Virus record (IMG/VR): IMGVR_UViG_3300035682_000004
Strand: one strand, 5' to 3'
Source of the DNA: a virus
Length of the DNA stretch: 64,000 nucleotides
Made by a program: the position numbers and the translations under genes
Shown: piece after piece, positions 1 to 9,160 of the stretch
How the letters are laid out: the number at the start of each line of letters is the position of its first letter
How positions within the stretch are numbered: the first letter of the stretch is position 1
Notes under the pieces: model-generated
The model's input: the letters and a program-made list of their open reading frames with translations, nothing else
The model's database searches: none
What the model was told of the DNA's origin: nothing

Positions 1-179
1 TTGGTGATAAATTTTCTTGGTATAATGATAAGTATAGAAGTGGTAAAAGGAGATTAAAATTTAGTTGGTTAAGTGATGAGGATAGAGAGAAAGTGTATAA
101 TATTTTAAAAGATAAAGGTTATGATGTAAGAAATTATTTTAATAATTTTGATAGATTAGTTGTTTATTTAAATGATTAA
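1..179 (+). CDS. Partial early hypothetical protein (5'-truncated; ...GDKFSWYNDKYRSGKRRLKF...VVYLND*)
   Basis: Open frame from nt 3 to TAA 177-179, read manually; followed by an early promoter. Confidence 0.7.
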   Translation, partial: GDKFSWYNDKYRSGKRRLKFSWLSDEDREKVYNILKDKGYDVRNYFNNFDRLVVYLND

Positions 180-184
180 AAATG

Positions 185-216
185 TTTGGAAAGTTAAATA
201 ATTTTTATTATATTTA
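185..216 (+). promoter_or_regulatory. Early host-RNAP-type promoter TTTG-N20-TATATTTA
   Basis: TTTG 185-188, TATATTTA 209-216; resembles the Bacteroidota -33 TTTG / -7 TAnnTTTG consensus. Confidence 0.8.
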
Positions 217-261
217 AAATGTTAAGAAAATAAATAAATTAAACCCTTTAAAAAAAAAGAT

Positions 262-678
262 ATGAAAAGATTAAGTAAATTTGAAGTAGATTGTTTAGTA
301 GATGTAGTAGAGAGTAAATTAATGAGAATTGAAAAAGAAAAACTTAAAAAAGAGTGTGGTGAAAAAGTTAAAGAATGGAATAAGGAATTAAAAGAAATTT
401 TAAGTGAAAAGAGGATATTGAGTGATAAACTTGATGAAAGAATTAAGGAAATTAATAAAGAGTTATTAGTTAATGATTGGAATGGTGTTAATGTTTATAA
501 TAATGATTGTTATAGTGTGAAAGGAGATATGGTGATGATTAATGAAAATAAGAGTTATTATGGTGTGATGGGTAATGGTTTAAGAAGTAAAATTAGTAAT
601 GAAATTGTTGTTAATAGTTTAAAAGGAAATGATATTGATAGTTTAATAGATAGTTTAATAGATAAGTTTAAAAGTTAA
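262..678 (+). CDS. Early hypothetical coiled-coil protein, nearly C-free gene
   Basis: 138-aa ORF after promoter and AAAGAT-ATG start; only 2 C in 417 nt. Confidence 0.85.
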   Translation: MKRLSKFEVDCLVDVVESKLMRIEKEKLKKECGEKVKEWNKELKEILSEKRILSDKLDERIKEINKELLVNDWNGVNVYNNDCYSVKGDMVMINENKSYYGVMGNGLRSKISNEIVVNSLKGNDIDSLIDSLIDKFKS

Positions 679-701
679 TTATTAAGGGAGGGTTAAATAT
701 G

Positions 702-733
702 TTTGGCCCTCCCATTAACCTTTATTATATTTA
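702..733 (+). promoter_or_regulatory. Early promoter overlapping the gggagggttaaa/tttggccctccc hairpin
   Basis: TTTG 702-705, 20-nt spacer, TATATTTA 726-733. Confidence 0.8.
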
Positions 734-752
734 GTTAAATAAGAAAAAAGAT

Positions 753-974
753 ATGAAAAAAGAAATGAAGTTTAAGATCGGTGATATGGTTAAACCTACA
801 AATACGGTTTATGGTAAAAGATTTATTGGTAAAATTTGTGATTGTTGGATGAATAAACCTGAAAACATCCAAATTAAAGATGGTGAAATTGTTTATGTAG
901 TAATACATGATAATTATAGAGGTCATATGTTAAGGGAAGTTGATATTAAAGAATCTGATTTGGTTGCTCTATAA
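753..974 (+). CDS. Small early protein, SH3/KOW-like start (MKFKIGDMVK)
   Basis: ORF with own promoter; FKIGDxV start is common in small phage beta-barrel proteins. Confidence 0.75.
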   Translation: MKKEMKFKIGDMVKPTNTVYGKRFIGKICDCWMNKPENIQIKDGEIVYVVIHDNYRGHMLREVDIKESDLVAL

Positions 975-1000
975 TTTATATTAAGGGAGGGTTAAATATG

Positions 1001-1032
1001 TTTGGCCCTTCCATTAATCTTTATTATATTTA
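1001..1032 (+). promoter_or_regulatory. Early promoter
   Basis: TTTG-N20-TATATTTA. Confidence 0.8.
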
Positions 1033-1073
1033 GTTATTAAGAAAATAAGTTAAACACTTTAAAAACATAAGAT

Positions 1074-1277
1074 ATGGCAAATATGAGTTATTGTAGGTTC
1101 AGAAATACTTACTTAGATTTAATTGATTGTTCTAATAATTTAAATGACAAAGATATGTCATTTGATGAAAAAATGGCTAAGAAGAATTTATTAGAATTGT
1201 GTAAGGAAATGATTGAAGATTATGAGTTTAATAATTTAGGTGAGTTAGAAGATGATTTTGATGAGGTTTGGAGTTAA
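1074..1277 (+). CDS. Small acidic early phage protein (MANMSYCRFRNT...)
   Basis: ORF after promoter and AAGAT-ATG. Confidence 0.8.
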   Translation: MANMSYCRFRNTYLDLIDCSNNLNDKDMSFDEKMAKKNLLELCKEMIEDYEFNNLGELEDDFDEVWS

Positions 1278-1282
1278 ATAGA

Positions 1283-1314
1283 TTTGGCCTTCGGGCCAAT
1301 CTTTATTATATTTA
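1283..1314 (+). promoter_or_regulatory. Early promoter with internal ttggcc-TTCG-ggccaa hairpin
   Basis: TTTG-N20-TATATTTA with a UUCG-capped stem. Confidence 0.8.
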
Positions 1315-1334
1315 AATATAAAGAAAAAAAAGAT

Positions 1335-1658
1335 ATGAAAAATCAATCGTATAAAATTATCTCTAAAGAAAATCATAAAAATATTTGTGATGCTTATTGT
1401 TTAGAATTAAATAATGAGACTTATAAAGGATTTAATATTCAAACTAAAGGATATTTACTTTATAATGAAGGAAAAACATTTGATTTAAGTAATAATTTAA
1501 TTAATAAGTATCTAAATTTTGATTTATGGTCAGAAATAAGAGATATTAATGGAGTATTCTTAAAAAGAATTGCAGGTTCTAATCAAGGACATTTAATTAA
1601 TAGTTCTATAAATAGAGTAAAAAAATATATAGATAATAATAGTCATAGATTAAAATAA
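1335..1658 (+). CDS. Early hypothetical protein (start corrected to ATG 1335)
   Basis: Track start 1284 lies inside the promoter; AAAGAT-ATG at 1335 is in frame. Confidence 0.75.
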   Translation: MKNQSYKIISKENHKNICDAYCLELNNETYKGFNIQTKGYLLYNEGKTFDLSNNLINKYLNFDLWSEIRDINGVFLKRIAGSNQGHLINSSINRVKKYIDNNSHRLK

Positions 1659-1659
1659 G

Positions 1660-1691
1660 TTTGGCCTCGCCATGAACTGATGTTATATTTA
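1660..1691 (+). promoter_or_regulatory. Early promoter
   Basis: TTTG-N20-TATATTTA. Confidence 0.8.
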
Positions 1692-1709
1692 GATATAAAG
1701 AAAAAAGAT

Positions 1710-1850
1710 ATGACAGTAGAAGAATTAATTGAAAAATTATCTAAAATTGAAGATAAAACAAAAGAAGTAATGCTTATAGGTGATACTAAAGAGTGGATAA
1801 ATCATAGGATTAAAGAAAAAGAGAATTGTATAATTTTATATAATAATTAA
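1710..1850 (+). CDS. Small early protein, 46 aa (MTVEELIEKLSKIEDK...)
   Basis: Read manually; promoter plus AAAGAT-ATG; below the ORF-track cutoff. Confidence 0.75.
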   Translation: MTVEELIEKLSKIEDKTKEVMLIGDTKEWINHRIKEKENCIILYNN

Positions 1851-1857
1851 ATAAGAT

Positions 1858-2034
1858 ATGAATAAATTAAAATTTGATTTTATGGATGATTTAATATTAA
1901 ATCAAGATCATGAAATTTTAGAAACTGTTATTAACTCTATATGTAAAGAGTTGGGTAAAGAAGGATTTGATAAAGGTGATATTAATAAATTTGTATTGGT
2001 TAAGGTTAAAGAATATTTGGCCTTGGTAAAATAA
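1858..2034 (+). CDS. Small early protein, 58 aa (MNKLKFDFMDDL...)
   Basis: Read manually; AAGAT-ATG start. Confidence 0.7.
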   Translation: MNKLKFDFMDDLILNQDHEILETVINSICKELGKEGFDKGDINKFVLVKVKEYLALVK

Positions 2035-2047
2035 GATGTTATATTTA
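2016..2047 (+). promoter_or_regulatory. Early promoter
   Basis: TTTG-N20-TATATTTA. Confidence 0.8.
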
Positions 2048-2087
2048 GGTATAAAGAAAATAAGTTAAACATTTAAAAAAAAAAGAT

Positions 2088-2273
2088 ATGGGAAGTACAG
2101 TATTTGCAGTTTCAGATTTTGAAGGATCATTTGAAGAATTAGTTCATATTGATAATATCAATATAATTGAGTATATTGAAGAAGGATATGATGGTGGTTT
2201 ACCAAGTGTTAAAGTAATGGATGATGGTGAAGAAGATACTTGGTTTTATATTGATTTAGTAGAAATTGATTAA
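2088..2273 (+). CDS. Small, highly acidic early protein (possible DNA mimic)
   Basis: 61 aa, D/E-rich with a single basic residue; own promoter. Confidence 0.7.
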   Translation: MGSTVFAVSDFEGSFEELVHIDNINIIEYIEEGYDGGLPSVKVMDDGEEDTWFYIDLVEID

Positions 2274-2277
2274 TTTG

Positions 2278-2309
2278 TTTGGAATCCCAATTAATTGATG
2301 TTATATTTA
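2278..2309 (+). promoter_or_regulatory. Early promoter
   Basis: TTTG-N20-TATATTTA. Confidence 0.8.
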
Positions 2310-2327
2310 GGTATAAGAAAAAAAGAT

Positions 2328-2576
2328 ATGATAAACGAAACAGAATTAAAATCAGGTTACTTCATTTATGGTAACAAAGGTAATGTGTGGAGTAACACAG
2401 CACACATTTACAAATCAGGTCAAGGTAACTTATGTGGTACACCAGCACTTGCAACTAACCATGCCAAGTTTAATGGAATTAAAGTGGCGGGTTGTGTAGA
2501 GTGTAGTAAGGAGTATAGTGAGTTAATGGAACATCAATATTGGATTGATAAAAAAGAAGATTTGATAGAAGGTTAA
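2328..2576 (+). CDS. Small early protein with putative Zn site (H..C..CxxC)
   Basis: AHIY...LCG...GCVEC; start corrected to AAAGAT-ATG 2328. Confidence 0.7.
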   Translation: MINETELKSGYFIYGNKGNVWSNTAHIYKSGQGNLCGTPALATNHAKFNGIKVAGCVECSKEYSELMEHQYWIDKKEDLIEG

Positions 2577-2581
2577 ACAGG

Positions 2582-2613
2582 TTTGGCCTTAGGGCCAAAC
2601 TTTATTATATTTA
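2582..2613 (+). promoter_or_regulatory. Early promoter with gtttggcc-ttag-ggccaaac hairpin
   Basis: TTTG-N20-TATATTTA. Confidence 0.8.
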
Positions 2614-2639
2614 ATTATTAAGAAATTAAAGAAAAAGAT

Positions 2640-2816
2640 ATGAAAAGAGATTATTTTCAACACCAGATTTGTTTATTAACTAAACCAAAACATGATTCAA
2701 AGTTATATAAACTTATAACTCAGATGACTGAAGATTTAAGAGAAAAAGGTGTTTGTAAGAAACAAATTAAAGAATATTTAATTTTAGAAGTTAAACAAAT
2801 TATTAGTGAAACATAA
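2640..2816 (+). CDS. Small early protein, 58 aa (MKRDYFQHQIC...)
   Basis: Read manually; promoter plus AAAGAT-ATG. Confidence 0.7.
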   Translation: MKRDYFQHQICLLTKPKHDSKLYKLITQMTEDLREKGVCKKQIKEYLILEVKQIISET

Positions 2817-2821
2817 ATAGG

Positions 2822-2853
2822 TTTGGCCCTCCGGGGTAAGGATGTTATATTTA
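2822..2853 (+). promoter_or_regulatory. Early promoter
   Basis: TTTG-N20-TATATTTA. Confidence 0.8.
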
Positions 2854-2879
2854 AGTATTAAGAAATTAAAGAAAAAGAT

Positions 2880-3764
2880 ATGAACCAAACACAAACTAAA
2901 AGACGCGGTAGACCGTCTAAAAAGAAGGTAGCGCAAAATGTCACATACACGCCATCGTTAATTGATTTCTCGGCTATAACTAAGTTAAATAACTTAAATG
3001 TCGATCCTAAAATGATGGAGACAATGAAGTCAGGTCTAGCATTAGATCACTTTGTAAGTTATGAGGGTGGAGTGCCGAGTGCTTCAAATATGATGATTAT
3101 AGGTGATCCGGGTGTAGGTAAAACAACATTGTTACTTGATCTATTAGCCGCGGTACAAAATAAAAATCGTAAGTGCTTATTCATATCAGGTGAGATGGGC
3201 CGTAAGCAAATGTTTAAATACACACAAAGGTTCCCACAGTTTGGTATAGTAGACACTTTATTTATGAGTGACTATATGAATCATAACACTAAGGATGTAA
3301 TTGAACAAGCGCTTAACATTGGTTATGATTTAGTTTTAATTGATTCCATCGCTGAAATTATTGATGGGGTTAGGGATGATAACAATTGGGATAGAAAAAT
3401 TGCCGAGTCATGGTTAGTAGATGTTTGTGTTAACAATAATAAAGGCGATAATAAAGGAAATAAGTACACATCGTTTCTACTGATTCAACAGGTTACTAAA
3501 GCGGGTGTGTTTGTGGGTTCGAATAAGCTGAAACACTTAACAGACGCAATGTTAGAAATGAGACGTGAGTCAGATAGAAATGGTGGTGGTACATATTTAA
3601 CATTTACTAAGAATAGAAATGGTGAGGCTGGGATGAGAATGAGTTTTCAATTAACAGGTACACAAATATATTACGGCACAATTGAAATTGATTCTGATGG
3701 ATCAGATGAGGAGTTGGAATTAGAAATAACCAACCCGGAGTATCAAAACATTATTTTTTCTTAA
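2880..3764 (+). CDS. RecA-superfamily ATPase, RadA/Sms-like core with N-terminal AT-hook
   Basis: Walker A GDPGVGKT, ISGE, Walker B LVLIDS, KHLTDA and KNRNG (cf. RadA EHxVD, KNRFG); KRRGRPSKK AT-hook. Confidence 0.8.
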   Translation: MNQTQTKRRGRPSKKKVAQNVTYTPSLIDFSAITKLNNLNVDPKMMETMKSGLALDHFVSYEGGVPSASNMMIIGDPGVGKTTLLLDLLAAVQNKNRKCLFISGEMGRKQMFKYTQRFPQFGIVDTLFMSDYMNHNTKDVIEQALNIGYDLVLIDSIAEIIDGVRDDNNWDRKIAESWLVDVCVNNNKGDNKGNKYTSFLLIQQVTKAGVFVGSNKLKHLTDAMLEMRRESDRNGGGTYLTFTKNRNGEAGMRMSFQLTGTQIYYGTIEIDSDGSDEELELEITNPEYQNIIFS

Positions 3765-3769
3765 TATCT

Positions 3770-3816
3770 GAGGTAACTGGTCCTGGCGCGTTTCATATCC
3801 GCCCAGGGCTAACCTC
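3770..3816 (+). terminator. GC-rich stem-loop after the ATPase gene
   Basis: gaggt..tggtcctgg / ccagggcta..acctc pairing. Confidence 0.5.
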
Positions 3817-3819
3817 TTG

Positions 3820-3851
3820 CTTGGCCTCCCGATCAATTGATGTTATATTTA
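3820..3851 (+). promoter_or_regulatory. Early promoter
   Basis: CTTG-N20-TATATTTA. Confidence 0.75.
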
Positions 3852-3869
3852 ATTATAAAGAAAAAAGAT

Positions 3870-4103
3870 ATGACAAACACAAACACTATCATTAAACAAT
3901 TTTTAAAATTAAATTTTCCTAAACAGTTTATTTATTTTAATAATCCAAAATCAATTAAAATTCAATTACCAAACACAATTTCTGAATCATTAATTAATTT
4001 TTTACAATCTCAAAATATTCAATTTAATTCAACACAACCTGAATTAATTCAATATCAATTAACATTTATTAAAAACATGACTCAAATCATAATTAATAAA
4101 TAA
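3870..4103 (+). CDS. Early hypothetical protein, nearly G-free gene (77 aa)
   Basis: AAAGAT-ATG at 3870 after promoter; 5 G in 234 nt. Confidence 0.7.
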   Translation: MTNTNTIIKQFLKLNFPKQFIYFNNPKSIKIQLPNTISESLINFLQSQNIQFNSTQPELIQYQLTFIKNMTQIIINK

Positions 4104-4107
4104 AAAA

Positions 4108-4139
4108 TTTGGCTTCCGGGTCAATTGATGTTATATTTA
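4108..4139 (+). promoter_or_regulatory. Early promoter
   Basis: TTTG-N20-TATATTTA. Confidence 0.8.
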
Positions 4140-4161
4140 GATATAATAAGAAAATAAAGAT

Positions 4162-4596
4162 ATGAAAAAAGAAATTATTATTGCTCAAAAAAACAAAGAT
4201 TTAATCATCACAAACTATAGTGGTGATAGTATGTGTGGTGAAGGTAAGTATAGAGTTATAACAAAATGTCAAGCCGGGTTTATGATTACAAGTGTTAAAC
4301 AAGCTAAAAGTGCGATTGATGTATTTCGTAGTTATAAAATTAAACATGTACATTCAATTGCCTATATAAAAGAAAATGATAAGTTGGGTAGGTATGATTT
4401 TATGGTTTACGCTCGGGTAGGTAAAAAAGTATGGATTGAGGAAGATTTATTACGTGAGTTAGAGATAGGTGATATTAATCAGAGTCTATATAATACAGCT
4501 TTATATTCTCAAGAACAATATAATAAAGTAAATGCTAAGTCATGGGCAAGTAAAGCATATGTGATGAATGGTTCGTTTGAATTTAGTGAGGTCTGA
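4162..4596 (+). CDS. Early hypothetical protein
   Basis: 144-aa ORF with own promoter. Confidence 0.8.
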   Translation: MKKEIIIAQKNKDLIITNYSGDSMCGEGKYRVITKCQAGFMITSVKQAKSAIDVFRSYKIKHVHSIAYIKENDKLGRYDFMVYARVGKKVWIEEDLLRELEIGDINQSLYNTALYSQEQYNKVNAKSWASKAYVMNGSFEFSEV

Positions 4597-4628
4597 TTTG
4601 GCCTCGCTAATAATTGATGTTATATTTA
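4597..4628 (+). promoter_or_regulatory. Early promoter
   Basis: TTTG-N20-TATATTTA. Confidence 0.8.
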
Positions 4629-4647
4629 GATATAATAAGAAACGGAT

Positions 4648-4782
4648 ATGAAAATATTAAACATTTTAGATGTACCAGGTAACGAGTTAGTAGAAGTGTT
4701 ATGGATCGATGATAATGAAATCGAGTTAATACCACTACAAGAGTTTATTAGTAAGTATGGAGTAGACAAATTAAATAAATAA
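4648..4782 (+). CDS. Small early protein, 44 aa (MKILNILDVPGNE...)
   Basis: Read manually; promoter plus GGAT-ATG. Confidence 0.65.
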   Translation: MKILNILDVPGNELVEVLWIDDNEIELIPLQEFISKYGVDKLNK

Positions 4783-4785
4783 GAT

Positions 4786-4980
4786 ATGAATATAATAAAA
4801 TTAGAAACAAGAATAACCACAACGTTTGAGGTGTATTATGAAAGGTATAATTACACAGTGGTTAAAGAACAGTTAAGTAAAAACACATTTAAGTACACTG
4901 TGATAGAAAGTTTTGATCAACCACTTGATGATGACTTTAAATCAAGGTTAGTGATGGAACTAGAAAGTGTAATTGGTTAA
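4786..4980 (+). CDS. Small early hypothetical protein
   Basis: ORF track; AAGAT-ATG. Confidence 0.7.
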   Translation: MNIIKLETRITTTFEVYYERYNYTVVKEQLSKNTFKYTVIESFDQPLDDDFKSRLVMELESVIG

Positions 4981-4982
4981 CC

Positions 4983-5138
4983 ATGAGAAAAACAATCACA
5001 CTATTAGCATTATTAATTGGATTACTAATGTTAACACAATCATGTTCATCACGTCGTTACTATAGACATCACAAGCCTAAACAAGCATGTAAGGGCGGTG
5101 ACTGGGGAGGCAATTTAATGGAAAAACGTATATGGTAA
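4983..5138 (+). CDS. Small lipoprotein, 51 aa (MRKTITLLALLIGLLMLTQSC...)
   Basis: Read manually; signal peptide II with lipobox Cys. Confidence 0.7.
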   Translation: MRKTITLLALLIGLLMLTQSCSSRRYYRHHKPKQACKGGDWGGNLMEKRIW

Positions 5139-5142
5139 TTTG

Positions 5143-5174
5143 TTTGGCTCACCACAATTAGTTTATTATATTTA
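5143..5174 (+). promoter_or_regulatory. Early promoter
   Basis: TTTG-N20-TATATTTA. Confidence 0.8.
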
Positions 5175-5193
5175 AGTATAATAAGAAACGGAT

Positions 5194-5379
5194 ATGAAAA
5201 AAGAACACTTAATAAACAACACCTACCAAGTAGTAGATAATGATGATAATGTATTATTCCAAGGTTCGGAATCGGAATGTAATGAATATATCATGGACCA
5301 AGGTATGGAGAATTTATTAAACCGTATTAATAATAATCCAGAATTATTAGATGTGTTCAAACGATTAAATGATAGATAG
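5194..5379 (+). CDS. Small early hypothetical protein
   Basis: ORF track; own promoter. Confidence 0.75.
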   Translation: MKKEHLINNTYQVVDNDDNVLFQGSESECNEYIMDQGMENLLNRINNNPELLDVFKRLNDR

Positions 5380-5380
5380 G

Positions 5381-5412
5381 TTTGGCTTACCAGGATTAGT
5401 TTATTATATTTA
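5381..5412 (+). promoter_or_regulatory. Early promoter
   Basis: TTTG-N20-TATATTTA. Confidence 0.8.
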
Positions 5413-5434
5413 ATTATAATAAGAAAATAAAGAT

Positions 5435-5590
5435 ATGAACATCGAAAAAACAAAATTAGACATTATTAAAAACACATTAACAGCAGTATTAGAATCTGAT
5501 GTAATAGTAGATAATAATAATTCAGATGCATTTAAATTTGGTTACTTAAAAGGTACCATTAATACAATAATTGAGTTTATAAACGAATAA
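5435..5590 (+). CDS. Small early protein, 51 aa (MNIEKTKLDII...AFKFGYLKGTI...)
   Basis: Read manually; promoter plus AAAGAT-ATG. Confidence 0.7.
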   Translation: MNIEKTKLDIIKNTLTAVLESDVIVDNNNSDAFKFGYLKGTINTIIEFINE

Positions 5591-5595
5591 CAAAT

Positions 5596-5683
5596 AGTCA
5601 AGTGGTGGAATGGTTACCACGGTGGAGGTAGATGCAGCAATGTAATCCCAAAACAGAAACAGGTTCGAATCCTGTCCTGACTA
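5596..5683 (+). ncRNA. tRNA-like RNA 1 lacking a canonical anticodon arm
   Basis: Acceptor AGTCAAG/CCTGACT-A, D-arm GTGG/CCAC, T-arm ACAGG-TTCGAAT-CCTGT; the middle is a GCAA-capped hairpin. Confidence 0.7.
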
Positions 5684-5998
5684 CGAAGAGATAACAATCT
5701 TCCGATATGGCATCCATTCCGTTAATATGGAGAACTTGTTTGGCGGCTCGGAAAGACGAGCATTTATATTTAAAACATTAATCAACATGATAACATTTTT
5801 ATTAGTAGTAGCAATACTATATTTAGCCTCAATTAACAATAACACTAAACACTAAAACCGCAACAACATGTCAGACATCGGAATCGACTTTAGCATCACG
5901 TTAATACTTACTATGGTAGTATTGGTGGTTGGAACAGAATTAATTGACCGTTATAAACAACACAGACGGGTTAAATAATATTTCATATCATATCTTAT

Positions 5999-6030
5999 GG
6001 GGGTCTGGATTTCTAGATCCCCTTTCTTTT
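5999..6030 (+). terminator. Intrinsic terminator closing the early array
   Basis: gggggtctgg-attt-ctagatcccc followed by tttctttt. Confidence 0.75.
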
Positions 6031-6073
6031 GTCTTGTGTGGGTTACATCCCCTATCTGTTTGCGGTATATATA

Positions 6074-6270
6074 CGGTATATGTACGGAGGTAATGCGGTG
6101 GAAATGCGTGCGTTGTTATCCATCGATGCGTGGTATGTGGTATAGTATAAGGGGAATGTAAAAACAGCAAGTAAACGTATACTGCGCGCGGAGCGTATAT
6201 ATTGATATACTACCACTACCTACCATACCACTAACACGCATTAACACCGCTATACTCCGCCCATATCCCG
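6074..6270. repeat. Long imperfect inverted repeat in a non-coding, GC-richer block
   Basis: 6074-6110 pairs with 6235-6270 and 6130-6149 pairs with 6206-6231; G-rich left arm, C-rich right arm. Confidence 0.75.
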
Positions 6271-6408
6271 GCTATAAACGACGAACGATTGTAAAATGCA
6301 TAATGCGTAATTCCATATAGCCCTTTTGGTATAACCGGTTAAAGGCCGGGAACAACTTAGAAGTACAATTTTTCACATCGATGCAAATATATACCTATAT
6401 ACCTTAAG

Positions 6409-6440
6409 TTTGGCTCACCAGGATAAGGATATTATATTTA
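6409..6440 (+). promoter_or_regulatory. Early promoter
   Basis: TTTG-N20-TATATTTA. Confidence 0.8.
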
Positions 6441-6486
6441 AGATGTTAAAAAAGATATAAGTTAAACAATTTAAAAAATAAAGGTT

Positions 6487-7287
6487 ATGCTAGACATTAA
6501 AAACATGGATTTCATCGACAAGTCGGAAATCAAAACAAGAGCAAATTCAATTTTCACAACTACCGGTTCACCTAGTACTTCAGATAAGTACGCTCACATC
6601 TCAACCGAAAAAATTATTGACGATATGGAGTTATTAGGATGGGGTGTGGTTGATGCAAAACAAGTTAAAGCGCGTAAGAGTGTAGGATATCAAAAACACT
6701 TAGTTGTGTTTAGAAATCCAGAAATTGTAATTGATGGGGTAGATGGTGACACAGTTTTCCCTCAAATATTACTTACCAATTCACATGACGGTAAAAATGC
6801 GTTTACATTCACAGCCGGTTTATTTAGAATGATTTGTGAAAATGGTTTAGTGGTTTGTAATCAAGAATTCGAGAATCTAAAAATTAGACACTACGGATAC
6901 GATTTTGAGGAACTAGAAAAAACCATTAATACAATGGTAGAAAAGTTACCGTTAACTGTTGAATCAATGAACCGCTTTAAAACCACGGTTTTGAATTCAA
7001 ACCAAATGCTTGATTTTGCTAAACGCGCATTGAATTCCAGATTTACTGATAGTGAATTAGAGCATATCACCATCGATTTAAATGACTTATTAACTCCGTC
7101 ACGTGAGGAAGATAAGGGTAACGACATGTGGTCAGTGTTTAATACGGTTCAGGAAAAATTAACACACGGGTTATTTAATTACGCTTATGGTTCTAAAAAT
7201 CGTAAGGCACGTAAAATTAAGAACTTCAATAAGGACATGGAGTTAAACAATAAGTTGTACCAATTAGCAAACGAATTCGTCAATTAA
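6487..7287 (+). CDS. DUF932/DUF945-family protein
   Basis: ILLTNSHDG, AGLFRMICENGL, WSVFNTVQE motifs. Confidence 0.85.
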   Translation: MLDIKNMDFIDKSEIKTRANSIFTTTGSPSTSDKYAHISTEKIIDDMELLGWGVVDAKQVKARKSVGYQKHLVVFRNPEIVIDGVDGDTVFPQILLTNSHDGKNAFTFTAGLFRMICENGLVVCNQEFENLKIRHYGYDFEELEKTINTMVEKLPLTVESMNRFKTTVLNSNQMLDFAKRALNSRFTDSELEHITIDLNDLLTPSREEDKGNDMWSVFNTVQEKLTHGLFNYAYGSKNRKARKIKNFNKDMELNNKLYQLANEFVN

Positions 7288-7299
7288 TGACGAGTTCGT
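7271..7299 (+). terminator. Stem-loop over the DUF932 stop codon
   Basis: acgaattcgtca / tgacgagttcgt, 12-bp stem. Confidence 0.6.
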
Positions 7300-7349
7300 A
7301 TATATGTATATTAGTAGATAGGTATACACAAAATTAGCGCGCGAGAACT

Positions 7350-7841
7350 ATGGGAAGTTATAAAACCAATAAACAAGTATTAAAAAAATTAACTGTTGAA
7401 GAAGCACAAGCCTTTATTCCGGTTAGTATGGAAAATTCTGATGAATTAGAAAATGCTTATTTTTATACTATGGTTCCTATGGGTAATGGTTGGGATGAAA
7501 TAAATTATTATACTAACCGAAATACTCAAACTTGGAGACAAGGTAAACATAATAGTTGGATTTATATTTTATCTAATAAAACAATGCCTGGCCTTTTTAA
7601 AATTGGTCATACAACAAAACATCCTGATGAACGGGCAAGAGAAATTTCACGATCAACTGGTGTTCCAATTCCGTTTGAAGTTGAATGGGCGTTTGACTGT
7701 TTTGATTCTGATAGATTAGAAGCAGAAATTCATAGAGCATTAGATTCGTTTAGGTATTCATCAAATAAAGAATTTTTTGAAATATCTTTAAATGAAGCAA
7801 AAGAAACTATAAGGAAACTTGGCTCTGCGTATAGGAGTTAG
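7350..7841 (+). CDS. GIY-YIG-like T5orf172-domain protein
   Basis: WIYILSN..MPGLFKIGHT..P.ERA..STGVP.PF..LE.EIH..KEFF. Confidence 0.85.
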   Translation: MGSYKTNKQVLKKLTVEEAQAFIPVSMENSDELENAYFYTMVPMGNGWDEINYYTNRNTQTWRQGKHNSWIYILSNKTMPGLFKIGHTTKHPDERAREISRSTGVPIPFEVEWAFDCFDSDRLEAEIHRALDSFRYSSNKEFFEISLNEAKETIRKLGSAYRS

Positions 7842-7851
7842 TATATTTATA
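7818..7851 (+). promoter_or_regulatory. Composite early (CTTG-N20-TATATTTA) and late (ATATTTATA) promoter for the lipoprotein/tRNA cluster
   Basis: CTTG 7818-21, TATATTTA 7842-49, ATATTTATA 7843-51. Confidence 0.6.
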
Positions 7852-7892
7852 ATACGATAAATTAAACAAATAAAAACCAATAAAAAAAGAAG

Positions 7893-8045
7893 ATGAAAAA
7901 TCTAATTGCAATCGCAGCTTTAGCTGCAATCGTTTTGACTTCATGTCAATTTAACTCAACAAAAGAAACTACAACTACAGATTCAACTTCTGTTGATTCA
8001 ACAGTAGTGGTAGATTCAGTATCTGTTGATACAGTAACTAAGTAA
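7893..8045 (+). CDS. Small lipoprotein, 50 aa, with four D-(S/T)-x motifs
   Basis: MKNLIAIAALAAIVLTSC lipobox; DST, DST, DSV, DTV; read manually. Confidence 0.85.
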   Translation: MKNLIAIAALAAIVLTSCQFNSTKETTTTDSTSVDSTVVVDSVSVDTVTK

Positions 8046-8053
8046 TTAGTTAC

Positions 8054-8126
<73 letters not shown>

Positions 8127-8237
8127 CCCGGATTCATATAAATCGAGCGCAAAACCAATTGCTCCTTAGGTAGAAATATATGAATAAACAACCCGTCACG
8201 GTATGTTCAAAGAACAGGAGTGAACTAAGGAGAAAAT

Positions 8238-8358
8238 AGTCAGGTGGCGGAATAGTAGACGCAACTAGGTAAGTTAAAGGAATTATTAATTCCATAAGAC
8301 CATTAATTCCGAGATGTAAGAGAAATACATCATACAGGTTCAAATCCTGTCCTGATTA
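8238..8358 (+). ncRNA. tRNA-like RNA 2 with a multi-hairpin insert replacing the anticodon arm
   Basis: Acceptor AGTCAGG/CCTGATT-A, Leu-like D-arm GCG-GAATAGTAGA-CGC, T-arm ACAGG-TTCAAAT-CCTGT; 121 nt. Confidence 0.7.
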
Positions 8359-8363
8359 CACAT

Positions 8364-8436
8364 CGCGGAATAGAGCAGTTGGTAGCTCGCTAGGCTCATA
8401 ACCTAGAGGTCGAAGGTTCGAGCCCTTCTTCCGCTA
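8364..8436 (+). tRNA. trnM: tRNA-Met(CAU), probably initiator
   Basis: Anticodon CAT; C1:U72 mismatch and TAGAGCAG D-arm typical of fMet. Confidence 0.9.
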
Positions 8437-8561
8437 CAAAAGCCCTAAGTACACGGGATCGAAAAGCAGCCGTGGCATACCGTAAGATCTGCTCGCTTAA
8501 TAGCTCCTAATCGTTAGTAGGCACAGTTGACAACTCTGGAGGCGATATAAAAGTTGTAATT

Positions 8562-8647
8562 GGAAGATTGGCAGAGTTGGTCTATCGCGACAGTCTTGAA
8601 AACTGTTGTACTGCAAGGTACCGTAGGTTCGAATCCTACATCTTCCG
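8562..8647 (+). tRNA. trnS: tRNA-Ser(UGA)
   Basis: GGAAGAT/ATCTTCC-G, loop CT-TGA-AA, long variable arm. Confidence 0.95.
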
Positions 8648-8652
8648 CTTCT

Positions 8653-8723
8653 TACCCTTTCGTCTAATGGCAGGACAATTGGTTTTGGTCCAATTAATCG
8701 AGGTTCGAGTCCTTGAGGGGTAA
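8653..8723 (+). tRNA. trnQ: tRNA-Gln(UUG)
   Basis: TACCCTT/AGGGGTA; stem ATTGG/CCAAT; loop TT-TTG-GT. Confidence 0.9.
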
Positions 8724-8725
8724 CT

Positions 8726-9085
8726 GTTCTTTGATATATTGGTAGTATAAAATTATAAGGAGACAAATAAAATGGAAACATTATCATTTATTTTAGGAAT
8801 GTCCTCGGTAGTGGTTATTGCAATTGTAATAGTTGCTGTTATAGGATTTTTTAAGGTTAGAAGTGTTGAAAAACAATTTAATGAATACAGACAAAACTTT
8901 ACTGTTGAGTTTGAAAAAAAAACAAAATATATTCATGATAGTATACATCAAGTAAATGATCAATTACATCGTAGAATTGATAACACAGAACGAGAAGTTT
9001 TTTCCCAATTAGACTCTCGATTAGATAAATTGGAAACTAAATTAACAAGTAAATAAATTAAACCCACTACCAATATATTAAGAAC
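8726..9085. repeat. ~20-bp inverted repeat (8726-8746 / 9066-9085) enclosing an ORF between two tRNAs
   Basis: gttctttgatatattggtagt vs actaccaatatattaagaac. Confidence 0.85.
8772..9056 (+). CDS. Membrane-anchored coiled-coil protein
   Basis: N-terminal TM helix; LDSRLDKLE coiled coil. Confidence 0.8.
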   Translation: METLSFILGMSSVVVIAIVIVAVIGFFKVRSVEKQFNEYRQNFTVEFEKKTKYIHDSIHQVNDQLHRRIDNTEREVFSQLDSRLDKLETKLTSK

Positions 9086-9160
9086 GCTCGGTTCGTCTAG
9101 GGGTTAGGACAGGAGATTTTCATTCTTCAAACAGGGGTTCGATTCCCCTACCGAGTACCA
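9086..9160 (+). tRNA. trnE: tRNA-Glu(UUC) with encoded CCA
   Basis: GCTCGGT/ACCGAGT-A-CCA; loop TT-TTC-AT. Confidence 0.95.

Follow-up and report, generated by a model that had tools for sequence, protein, structure and literature searches.

The DNA analysed here, referred to as the window, is a stretch of 64,000 nucleotides from the virus record IMGVR_UViG_3300035682_000004, in which all genes lie on the plus strand. A match to Portal_T4 (E = 1.5e-64) together with a T4-type terminase placed the phage among the T4-type myoviruses. In its early region, a gene for a RecA-like ATPase is followed by a stem-loop, a predicted early promoter, an A-rich leader and a 77-codon gene that is written almost without guanine (the G-poor gene), directly after which the promoter of the next cassette is predicted (Table 1). 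The G-poor gene stands alone as an early cassette of this T4-type phage from fresh water, and all of its relatives came from freshwater metagenomes. Searches of phage records returned no DNA match for positions 1-8000 and no protein match for the G-poor gene; the ATPase had distant matches only in these records, and no cultured relative was found there.

Table 1. Positions and base counts of features in the window and in contigs carrying relatives of the G-poor gene (L numbers)
Sequence	Feature	Positions	Strand	Description
Window	C-poor block	1..710	+	gene 262-678: 2 C/417 nt
Window	RecA-like ATPase gene	2880..3764	+	G195, C120, ordinary composition; PHROG matches; PF00154 on orthologues
Window	Stem-loop	3770..3816	+	3' of ATPase gene; stem-loop half of a PeSL-like cassette boundary
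Window	Early promoter (predicted)	3820..3851	+	CTTG 3820-3823, 20-nt spacer, TATATTTA 3844-3851
Window	A-rich leader	3852..3869	+	ends in GAT, abutting the start codon
Window	G-poor gene	3870..4103	+	77 codons + TAA; small alpha/beta protein; 5 G/234 nt
Window	Promoter of next cassette (predicted)	4108..4139	+	5 nt after stop; serves gene 4162-4596
Window	tRNA genes	5596-9160		two Ser, one each Thr, Met, Gln, Glu
L135	C-free block	1-1234	+	three ORFs with promoters and spacers
L135	Family gene	1287-1523		first C in its promoter; 24 G/237 nt
L137	C-free block	1-524	+	
L137	Family gene	558-782		
L134	C-free block	1-256	+	
L134	Family gene	484-741		32-35 G/258 nt (range with L158)
L158	C-free block	454-2220	+	1,767 nt, four ORFs
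L158	Family gene	2511-2768		past a hairpin and one small gene; 32-35 G/258 nt (range with L134)
L153	Family gene	1280-1504		2 G/225 nt
L140, L149, L151, L152	Family gene			4 G/225-237 nt
L014	Family gene			6 G/225 nt
L013	Family gene			8 G/237 nt
L133	Family gene			14 G/252 nt
L136	Family gene			19 G/264 nt

The promoter assigned to the G-poor gene is of a repeated early type, (T/C)TTG-N20-TATATTTA followed by an A-rich leader, which is also found before other small early ORFs, the C-poor gene included, and in relatives of the G-poor gene; a role as promoter is predicted from the motif. A small GGCC hairpin is located at the -33 box, and the A-rich leader ending in GAT-ATG is kept before nearly all early cassettes. 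The RNA of the region 3765-3840 was predicted to fold with an energy of -28 kcal/mol (z = -2.7 in comparison to shuffles), and the hairpin 3' of the G-poor gene (4100-4135) is weak, with -4 kcal/mol. In nearly all lineages the family gene has an early promoter of its own and is followed immediately by another promoter. The preliminary description had placed the G-poor gene on the same strand and under the same promoter type as C-free genes 3 kb away, and this was confirmed for the C-poor gene 262-678, which lies 3.2 kb upstream. The conserved promoter (3837-3869, and also at 1680 and 2295) holds an in-frame ATG or TTG, and several cassette ORFs carry a shared false N-terminus, MLYL.IKKKD, that was added by gene callers. 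Because the ATG in the promoter is in frame, many database entries of the family are 87 instead of 77 residues long.

Parts of the early region were present in three freshwater metatranscriptome studies. One contig of 151 nt covers positions 3865-4015; it could be DNA carry-over, and neither transcription nor its strand or level can be read from such contigs. Metatranscriptome contigs of relatives join across 2573-2814 and 4169-4611, each skipping exactly one cassette (gene 2640-2816 and gene 4162-4596, respectively), as recombination among the repeated promoter elements would produce.

Counting of the bases in the G-poor gene (A110 T83 C36 G5) confirmed the 5 G in 234 nt reported for it. Of these, two belong to ATG codons (the start and an internal one), two to GAA codons and one to a CAG. 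The 77-residue product indeed lacks Gly, Ala, Val, Asp, Arg, Cys and Trp, and it lacks His as well. At the G frequency of the window (0.162), a stretch of 234 nt should contain 38 G (binomial P(<=5) = 1.7e-12), and the probability is still about 1e-7 once the 64,000 positions of the window are allowed for. Only one stretch of the 64-kb window, 3861-4111, has at most 3 G per 120 nt, and it corresponds to the ORF plus a few bases. As a control of composition, we drew 1,713 ORFs (60 codons or longer) from unrelated AT-rich viral contigs that total about 1 Mb; these contigs came from a scan of viral contigs for the promoter 15-mer, which returned almost solely such unrelated contigs with one match each. 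The lowest G fraction among the control ORFs was 0.048 and the lowest C fraction 0.038. The G-poor gene, with a G fraction of 0.021, lies under the minimum of all 1,713, and the C fraction of the C-poor genes is 0.003-0.008, compared with the control minimum of 0.038. The G-poor gene contains one GC-containing 4-mer palindrome, versus 4.4 per 234 nt at the window average, and this paucity is a consequence of its base composition. Either skew had been noted to remove GC-containing palindromes; avoidance of restriction palindromes does not fit, since the genes on either side are of ordinary composition and leave the region unprotected.

One of the six reading frames is open at the G-poor gene, the other five containing 7-13 stops each, and at the local composition chance would leave 77 codons open with a probability of about 0.001. 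A test by dN/dS had been suggested to settle the coding status; the pairwise values were 0.14-0.4 at pS of 0.3-0.7 and, together with a confident AlphaFold fold, they established that the gene is coding. The alternative that the ORF is an inverted remnant of a C-free gene was ruled out, as every minus-strand frame is interrupted by 7-13 stops and neither a paralogue nor an inverted copy occurs in the window. When compared with the remaining window sequence by blastn and tblastx, the gene gave short AT-rich chance matches only.

Homologues of the G-poor gene product formed 30 clusters at 61-100% identity. A profile search of 1.8 billion representatives added six more distant members, and a metagenome scan added 24 further family loci. 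The family comprises a conserved alpha/beta protein of 74-87 residues with relatives in at least ten lineages. The AlphaFold model, built from only 18 sequences (pLDDT 92, pTM 0.78), shows a helix-strand-strand-helix-four-strand domain. The product had no match in PHROGs and none above the cut-off in Pfam. Fold searches returned only generic ferredoxin-like alpha/beta matches (Foldseek, E of at least 0.01; VIA-align 2, Z of at most 7; Atlas, TM-score of at most 0.69), ESM Atlas features and the four fold libraries yielded nothing specific, and longer fused versions of the protein were sought without success. The invariant or nearly invariant residues of the family include P34, P57 and Q32, and none of the conserved residues needs G except M1. 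In the family tree, 9 of 19 inner branches were without resolution, the protein being too short to polarise the changes of G content. In four clades, though not throughout the family, the RecA-like ATPase gene directly precedes the family gene (orthologues in L013, L132, L133 and L138), and the neighbourhood of the family gene varies (as in L014, L013/L132, L140, L158 and L135). The ATPase is a possible functional partner of the G-poor gene product.

Throughout the family, C exceeds G in every member and G exceeds C in the flanks, and the G fraction ranges from 0.009 to 0.136, in comparison to 0.16-0.28 in the flanks. In the most extreme member (L153), the two G are those of the start ATG and of one GAA, and one run of 159 nt is free of G. 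Silent sites were poorer in G than the codon usage of the same phage predicts in 13 out of 15 lineages (P <= 0.014); pooled, 152 G were observed versus 256 expected (P<1e-5). The number of C among G-minimal codons was slightly higher than expected (623 versus 590). For the window gene alone, 5 G were observed versus 7.9-8.3 expected from codon usage, with a minimum of 4 (P = 0.05-0.08), and in this gene itself the effect on G is exerted almost entirely via the amino-acid alphabet. G-free codons were replaced by G-containing ones in 18% of cases in the family versus 56% in the adjacent ATPase gene; the comparison was made in the same six phages at similar divergence, and, the pairs not being independent, it is the effect size that counts and not a P value. 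The only trait common to the missing residues (Gly, Ala, Val, Asp, Arg, Cys and Trp) is the G in their codons. The fold is independent of the reduced alphabet, since distant homologues place Val, Asp, Glu, Arg, Ala and Gly at positions that vary. Within the ORF, G is scarcest in the two 5'-most fifths (23 and 17 G versus 47-59 in the later ones), a gradient that is confounded with the conserved core of the protein.

The opposite skews of the G-poor gene and its C-free neighbours on one strand had been taken to argue against a regional mutation bias of replication or transcription. Such a bias is excluded, because the dip in G tracks the gene, ends with the ORF bounds, recurs in all contexts amid G-rich flanks and is kept despite synonymous turnover. 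The near-absence of G is confined to the gene and is held at silent as well as replacement sites. We are therefore highly confident that this is a coding gene under selection against G in the sense strand, which acts both on the choice of amino acids and on silent sites. The tRNA set of the phage was considered as a reason for the codons used and was rejected: its six tRNAs cover about a third of the codons of the G-poor gene (counted by hand from the codon table), and the C-free blocks of relatives extend into non-coding DNA, which makes a cause at the level of translation unlikely. GAA and ATG, the only codon types of the gene in which G is obligatory, are read by the Glu and Met tRNAs, a match that we judged to be a coincidence.

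In 328 ORFs of related loci the coding-strand GC skew centres around +0.2, and ORFs below -0.2 belong to this family only. The bimodal distribution of C-free and G-free genes that had been anticipated among relatives is absent; the skew is unimodal with a C-poor tail. In four remote contigs from three lineages, the family gene is located just 3' of zero-C blocks of 256 to 1,767 nt (Table 1). These blocks contain 3-4 ORFs and about 31-36% G, promoters and spacers included, and hairpin terminators return only where C returns. One protein encoded in the L135 block is homologous to the C-poor protein 262-678 of the window (34% identity, E = 3e-7). The family genes downstream of zero-C blocks are moderately G-poor, with G fractions of 0.04-0.14: those of L135, L134 and L158 have 24-35 G with 44-46 C (10-14% G and 17-19% C), whereas that of L137 is an exception with 10 G and 47 C. 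The most G-free members (L153 and L152) stand beside ordinary neighbours. The adjacency to C-free blocks may be an inherited gene order of the early region, and therefore we read no functional coupling into it.

The possibility that the G-poor message pairs in antisense with the G-rich RNA of the blocks was examined in four phages and rejected, as the best duplex energies were equal to those of shuffles (z of -0.6 to +0.1). Directly 5' of the C-free block of L158 lies a GC-rich non-coding region of about 250 nt (190-450) with repeated GCCGGCCTGCC-like motifs, whose role could be that of an origin, packaging site or genome terminus; it contained no tRNA. A second G-poor stretch, in L136 (6301-6450, plus strand; G6 and C42 in 150 nt), adjoins gene calls on the minus strand and is probably a C-poor gene on that other strand.

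As the cause of the avoidance of G, we tentatively favour selection for a three-letter message without G:C pairing. An mRNA composed of A, C and U only would form neither G:C nor G:U pairs and would be essentially free of structure from the first minute of infection; such an unstructured mRNA would be easy for ribosomes to load and invisible to readers of RNA helices. The neighbouring cassettes would be C-free under the same pressure, with the protein deciding which of the two letters is dropped. Since a C-free alphabet keeps 15 amino acids and a G-free alphabet only 11, most genes would drop C. In this family, Pro and Gln (Pro34, Pro57 and Gln32) need C, while G would be indispensable only at the start Met and at Glu58; G could thus be the only letter that the family can give up, because Pro and Gln need C and few residues need G. 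This argument from the alphabets is partly circular.

Predicted folding is consistent with a message selected to be free of pairing. The G-poor mRNA is the least structured of the 81 ORFs of the window (mean MFE of -5.7 kcal/mol per 120 nt, versus a median of -17.2), and the mRNA of the C-poor gene is the third least structured. For 251 nt of the G-poor RNA the MFE is -16.5 kcal/mol, and the frequency of the MFE structure in the ensemble is 0.0003. The unit of depletion is the ORF or transcript, with which the dip in G coincides, and G-poor genes are far rarer than C-poor ones, being limited to one family among the 328 ORFs. Selection against the co-occurrence of G and C, as put forward in the preliminary description, is a candidate, but it was weakened by the family genes of L135, L134 and L158, which carry both letters. 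As both are kept there beside zero-C blocks, no common pressure of equal strength to avoid pairing is seen. Moreover, the C-free blocks lack this letter completely over as much as 1,767 nt, even in promoters and spacers, which seems stricter than anything that selection on RNA folding would call for.

The extension of the C-free blocks of relatives over promoters and spacers would suit a rule that acts on a strand of the DNA. If all G in the virion were 7-deazaguanine, a gene that lacks C or G would confine the modified base to one strand of the duplex, to the template strand only in the G-poor gene and to the non-template strand only in the C-free genes, and early expression within the first minute or the survival of injected DNA would have to need such confinement. 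Complete replacement of G is known from DpdA3-type phages, including Flavobacterium and Cellulophaga phages (PMC10516641). We nevertheless consider this explanation unlikely: the family members with 10-14% G and 17-19% C break a one-strand rule, there is no known mechanism by which confinement to one strand would matter, and the version in which modified bases in the template block the host RNA polymerase predicts C-free genes only and makes the G-poor gene, with 36 template G, the worst case. QueC was found in none of five related fragments, but these are only 7-46% complete, so that its absence from them carries no weight. The liability could instead reside in the G of the message, each G being a hit that is costly for this gene only, if its product is needed when a G-directed agent acts. 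Candidate agents would be a G-preferring endoribonuclease, ddhGTP made by a viperin, or a drain of GTP into 7-deazaguanine synthesis, and the gene would encode an antidote spelled without the poisoned letter. It is consistent with this proposal that the avoidance of G is the robust signal and the enrichment of C is weak, that the trait accompanies the gene in whatever context it is located, as a link to the role of the gene would predict, and that the G left over fall on residues under constraint (start Met and Glu58, which account for both G of L153). Prokaryotic viperins make ddhCTP, ddhUTP and ddhGTP, which act as terminators of RNA chains (10.1101/2023.09.13.557418). However, the action of viperin products was shown on a phage polymerase, whereas the promoters here look host-type. 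An agent directed at G would strike the neighbouring early genes, with 23-36% G, hardest; none is known for the host, and the G-poor protein has neither a recognisable function nor a catalytic motif. An antidote of this kind is, in our judgement, decidedly unlikely.

The G-poor, C-containing transcript also resembles a target of Rho. A minimal rut site is a single-stranded, C-containing and G-poor RNA of 60-80 nt or more (PMC6144790), and a C/G ratio of 7.2 over 234 nt, 19 YC dinucleotides and almost no structure fit this definition. The cassette could then be a built-in Rho-sensitive element, serving as a translation-dependent attenuator or insulator, and the C-free neighbours would be Rho-proof. 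In bacteria with runaway transcription, genes have a purine bias that is driven by avoidance of Rho (PMC13323073), and in L135 and L137 the family gene is the first C-containing unit past a C-free block without hairpins. A role in Rho control is nonetheless quite improbable, because C is barely enriched after the avoidance of G is accounted for, the pyrimidine content of 51% is equalled by several late genes, and the next promoter is only 5 nt past the stop in the window; there is little to attenuate downstream, since a separate promoter for the following gene comes right after the stop in almost all lineages. The protein is under purifying selection, and therefore the ORF is more than a mere leader. 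Finally, the composition might require no selection at the nucleotide level and reflect an odd protein, a local mutation bias or a recent transfer. The silent-site test of the window gene is indeed marginal, the phage seldom uses G-ending codons anyway, and the conserved core is built of residues that have no need for G. Against this, the avoidance at silent sites is significant relative to own usage in nearly all lineages, the missing residues share only the G in their codons and are used by remote homologues, the replacement spectrum is more than threefold off that of the neighbouring gene, and synonymous turnover (pS 0.5-0.7) has proceeded without a gain of G. An explanation by composition or mutation bias alone is largely refuted, and we consider it extremely improbable.

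A symmetric rule, by which the early genes of these T4-type aquatic phages would use only one of G and C per strand, with the G-poor gene as the uncommon instance in which G is given up, be it as a consequence of 7-deazaguanine replacement or of pairing-free first messages, is conceivable but doubtful. If it were true, DNA hypermodification or expression in the first minute would dictate which amino acids are permitted, a constraint previously undescribed, and natural proteins would be made from 11 or 15 amino acids. Viral genes are known to be selected for nucleotide content, as in the purine bias of Rho avoidance or in dinucleotide avoidance, but 2-8 G per about 230 nt over many lineages is far more extreme than the known cases. 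Because the G-poor gene points in the direction opposite to its C-free neighbours, the explanation of C-free phage genes cannot be a simple ban on C. The gene encodes a confidently folding protein on an alphabet of about 12 amino acids, a natural reduced-alphabet protein that can be used in folding studies, and its 234 nt form a compact object for testing which features are to be avoided in early phage messages or in hypermodified DNA. A full-text literature search found no description of phage genes that lack one nucleotide.

Synthetic G-less and C-less cassettes are used for in vitro transcription without the need of one NTP. The G-poor gene is similar to them in being a transcribed stretch without one nucleotide, for which the respective NTP is not needed; however, those cassettes are artificial and non-coding, whereas the G-poor gene is natural, protein-coding and maintained in evolution. 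With the 7-deazaguanine-modified phages it has in common that they are aquatic and that the letter concerned is G, but theirs is a genome-wide modification of DNA that is not known to be connected with coding alphabets.

Among published systems, the nearest parallels are the PeSL (promoter-early stem-loop) cassettes for the architecture and the purine bias of Rho avoidance for selection on the coding strand. As in the T4-type phages RB49 and phi1, in which PeSL cassettes were described (Arbiol et al. 2010, PMC2839356), tiny orphan early genes are arrayed in a T4-type phage, here recognised from sequence alone; each gene stands behind a repeated host-type promoter and a stem-loop (here a motif match and an RNA fold), and the cassettes are gained, lost and shuffled among relatives. 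PeSL, however, concerns regulatory boundaries, and its description (PMC2839356) reports no three-letter coding; the promoters here are of a TTTG / TAnnTTT type, with an A-rich leader in place of a Shine-Dalgarno sequence. The resemblance to the bias of Rho avoidance (PMC13323073) lies in a selection on the coding strand that would act via the nascent RNA and reach the choice of codons, and the neighbours, poor in C and rich in G, resemble an extreme form of that purine bias. The G-poor gene differs from it in direction, being C-containing and hence Rho-prone, and in extremity, its depletion being near-total and restricted to one family.
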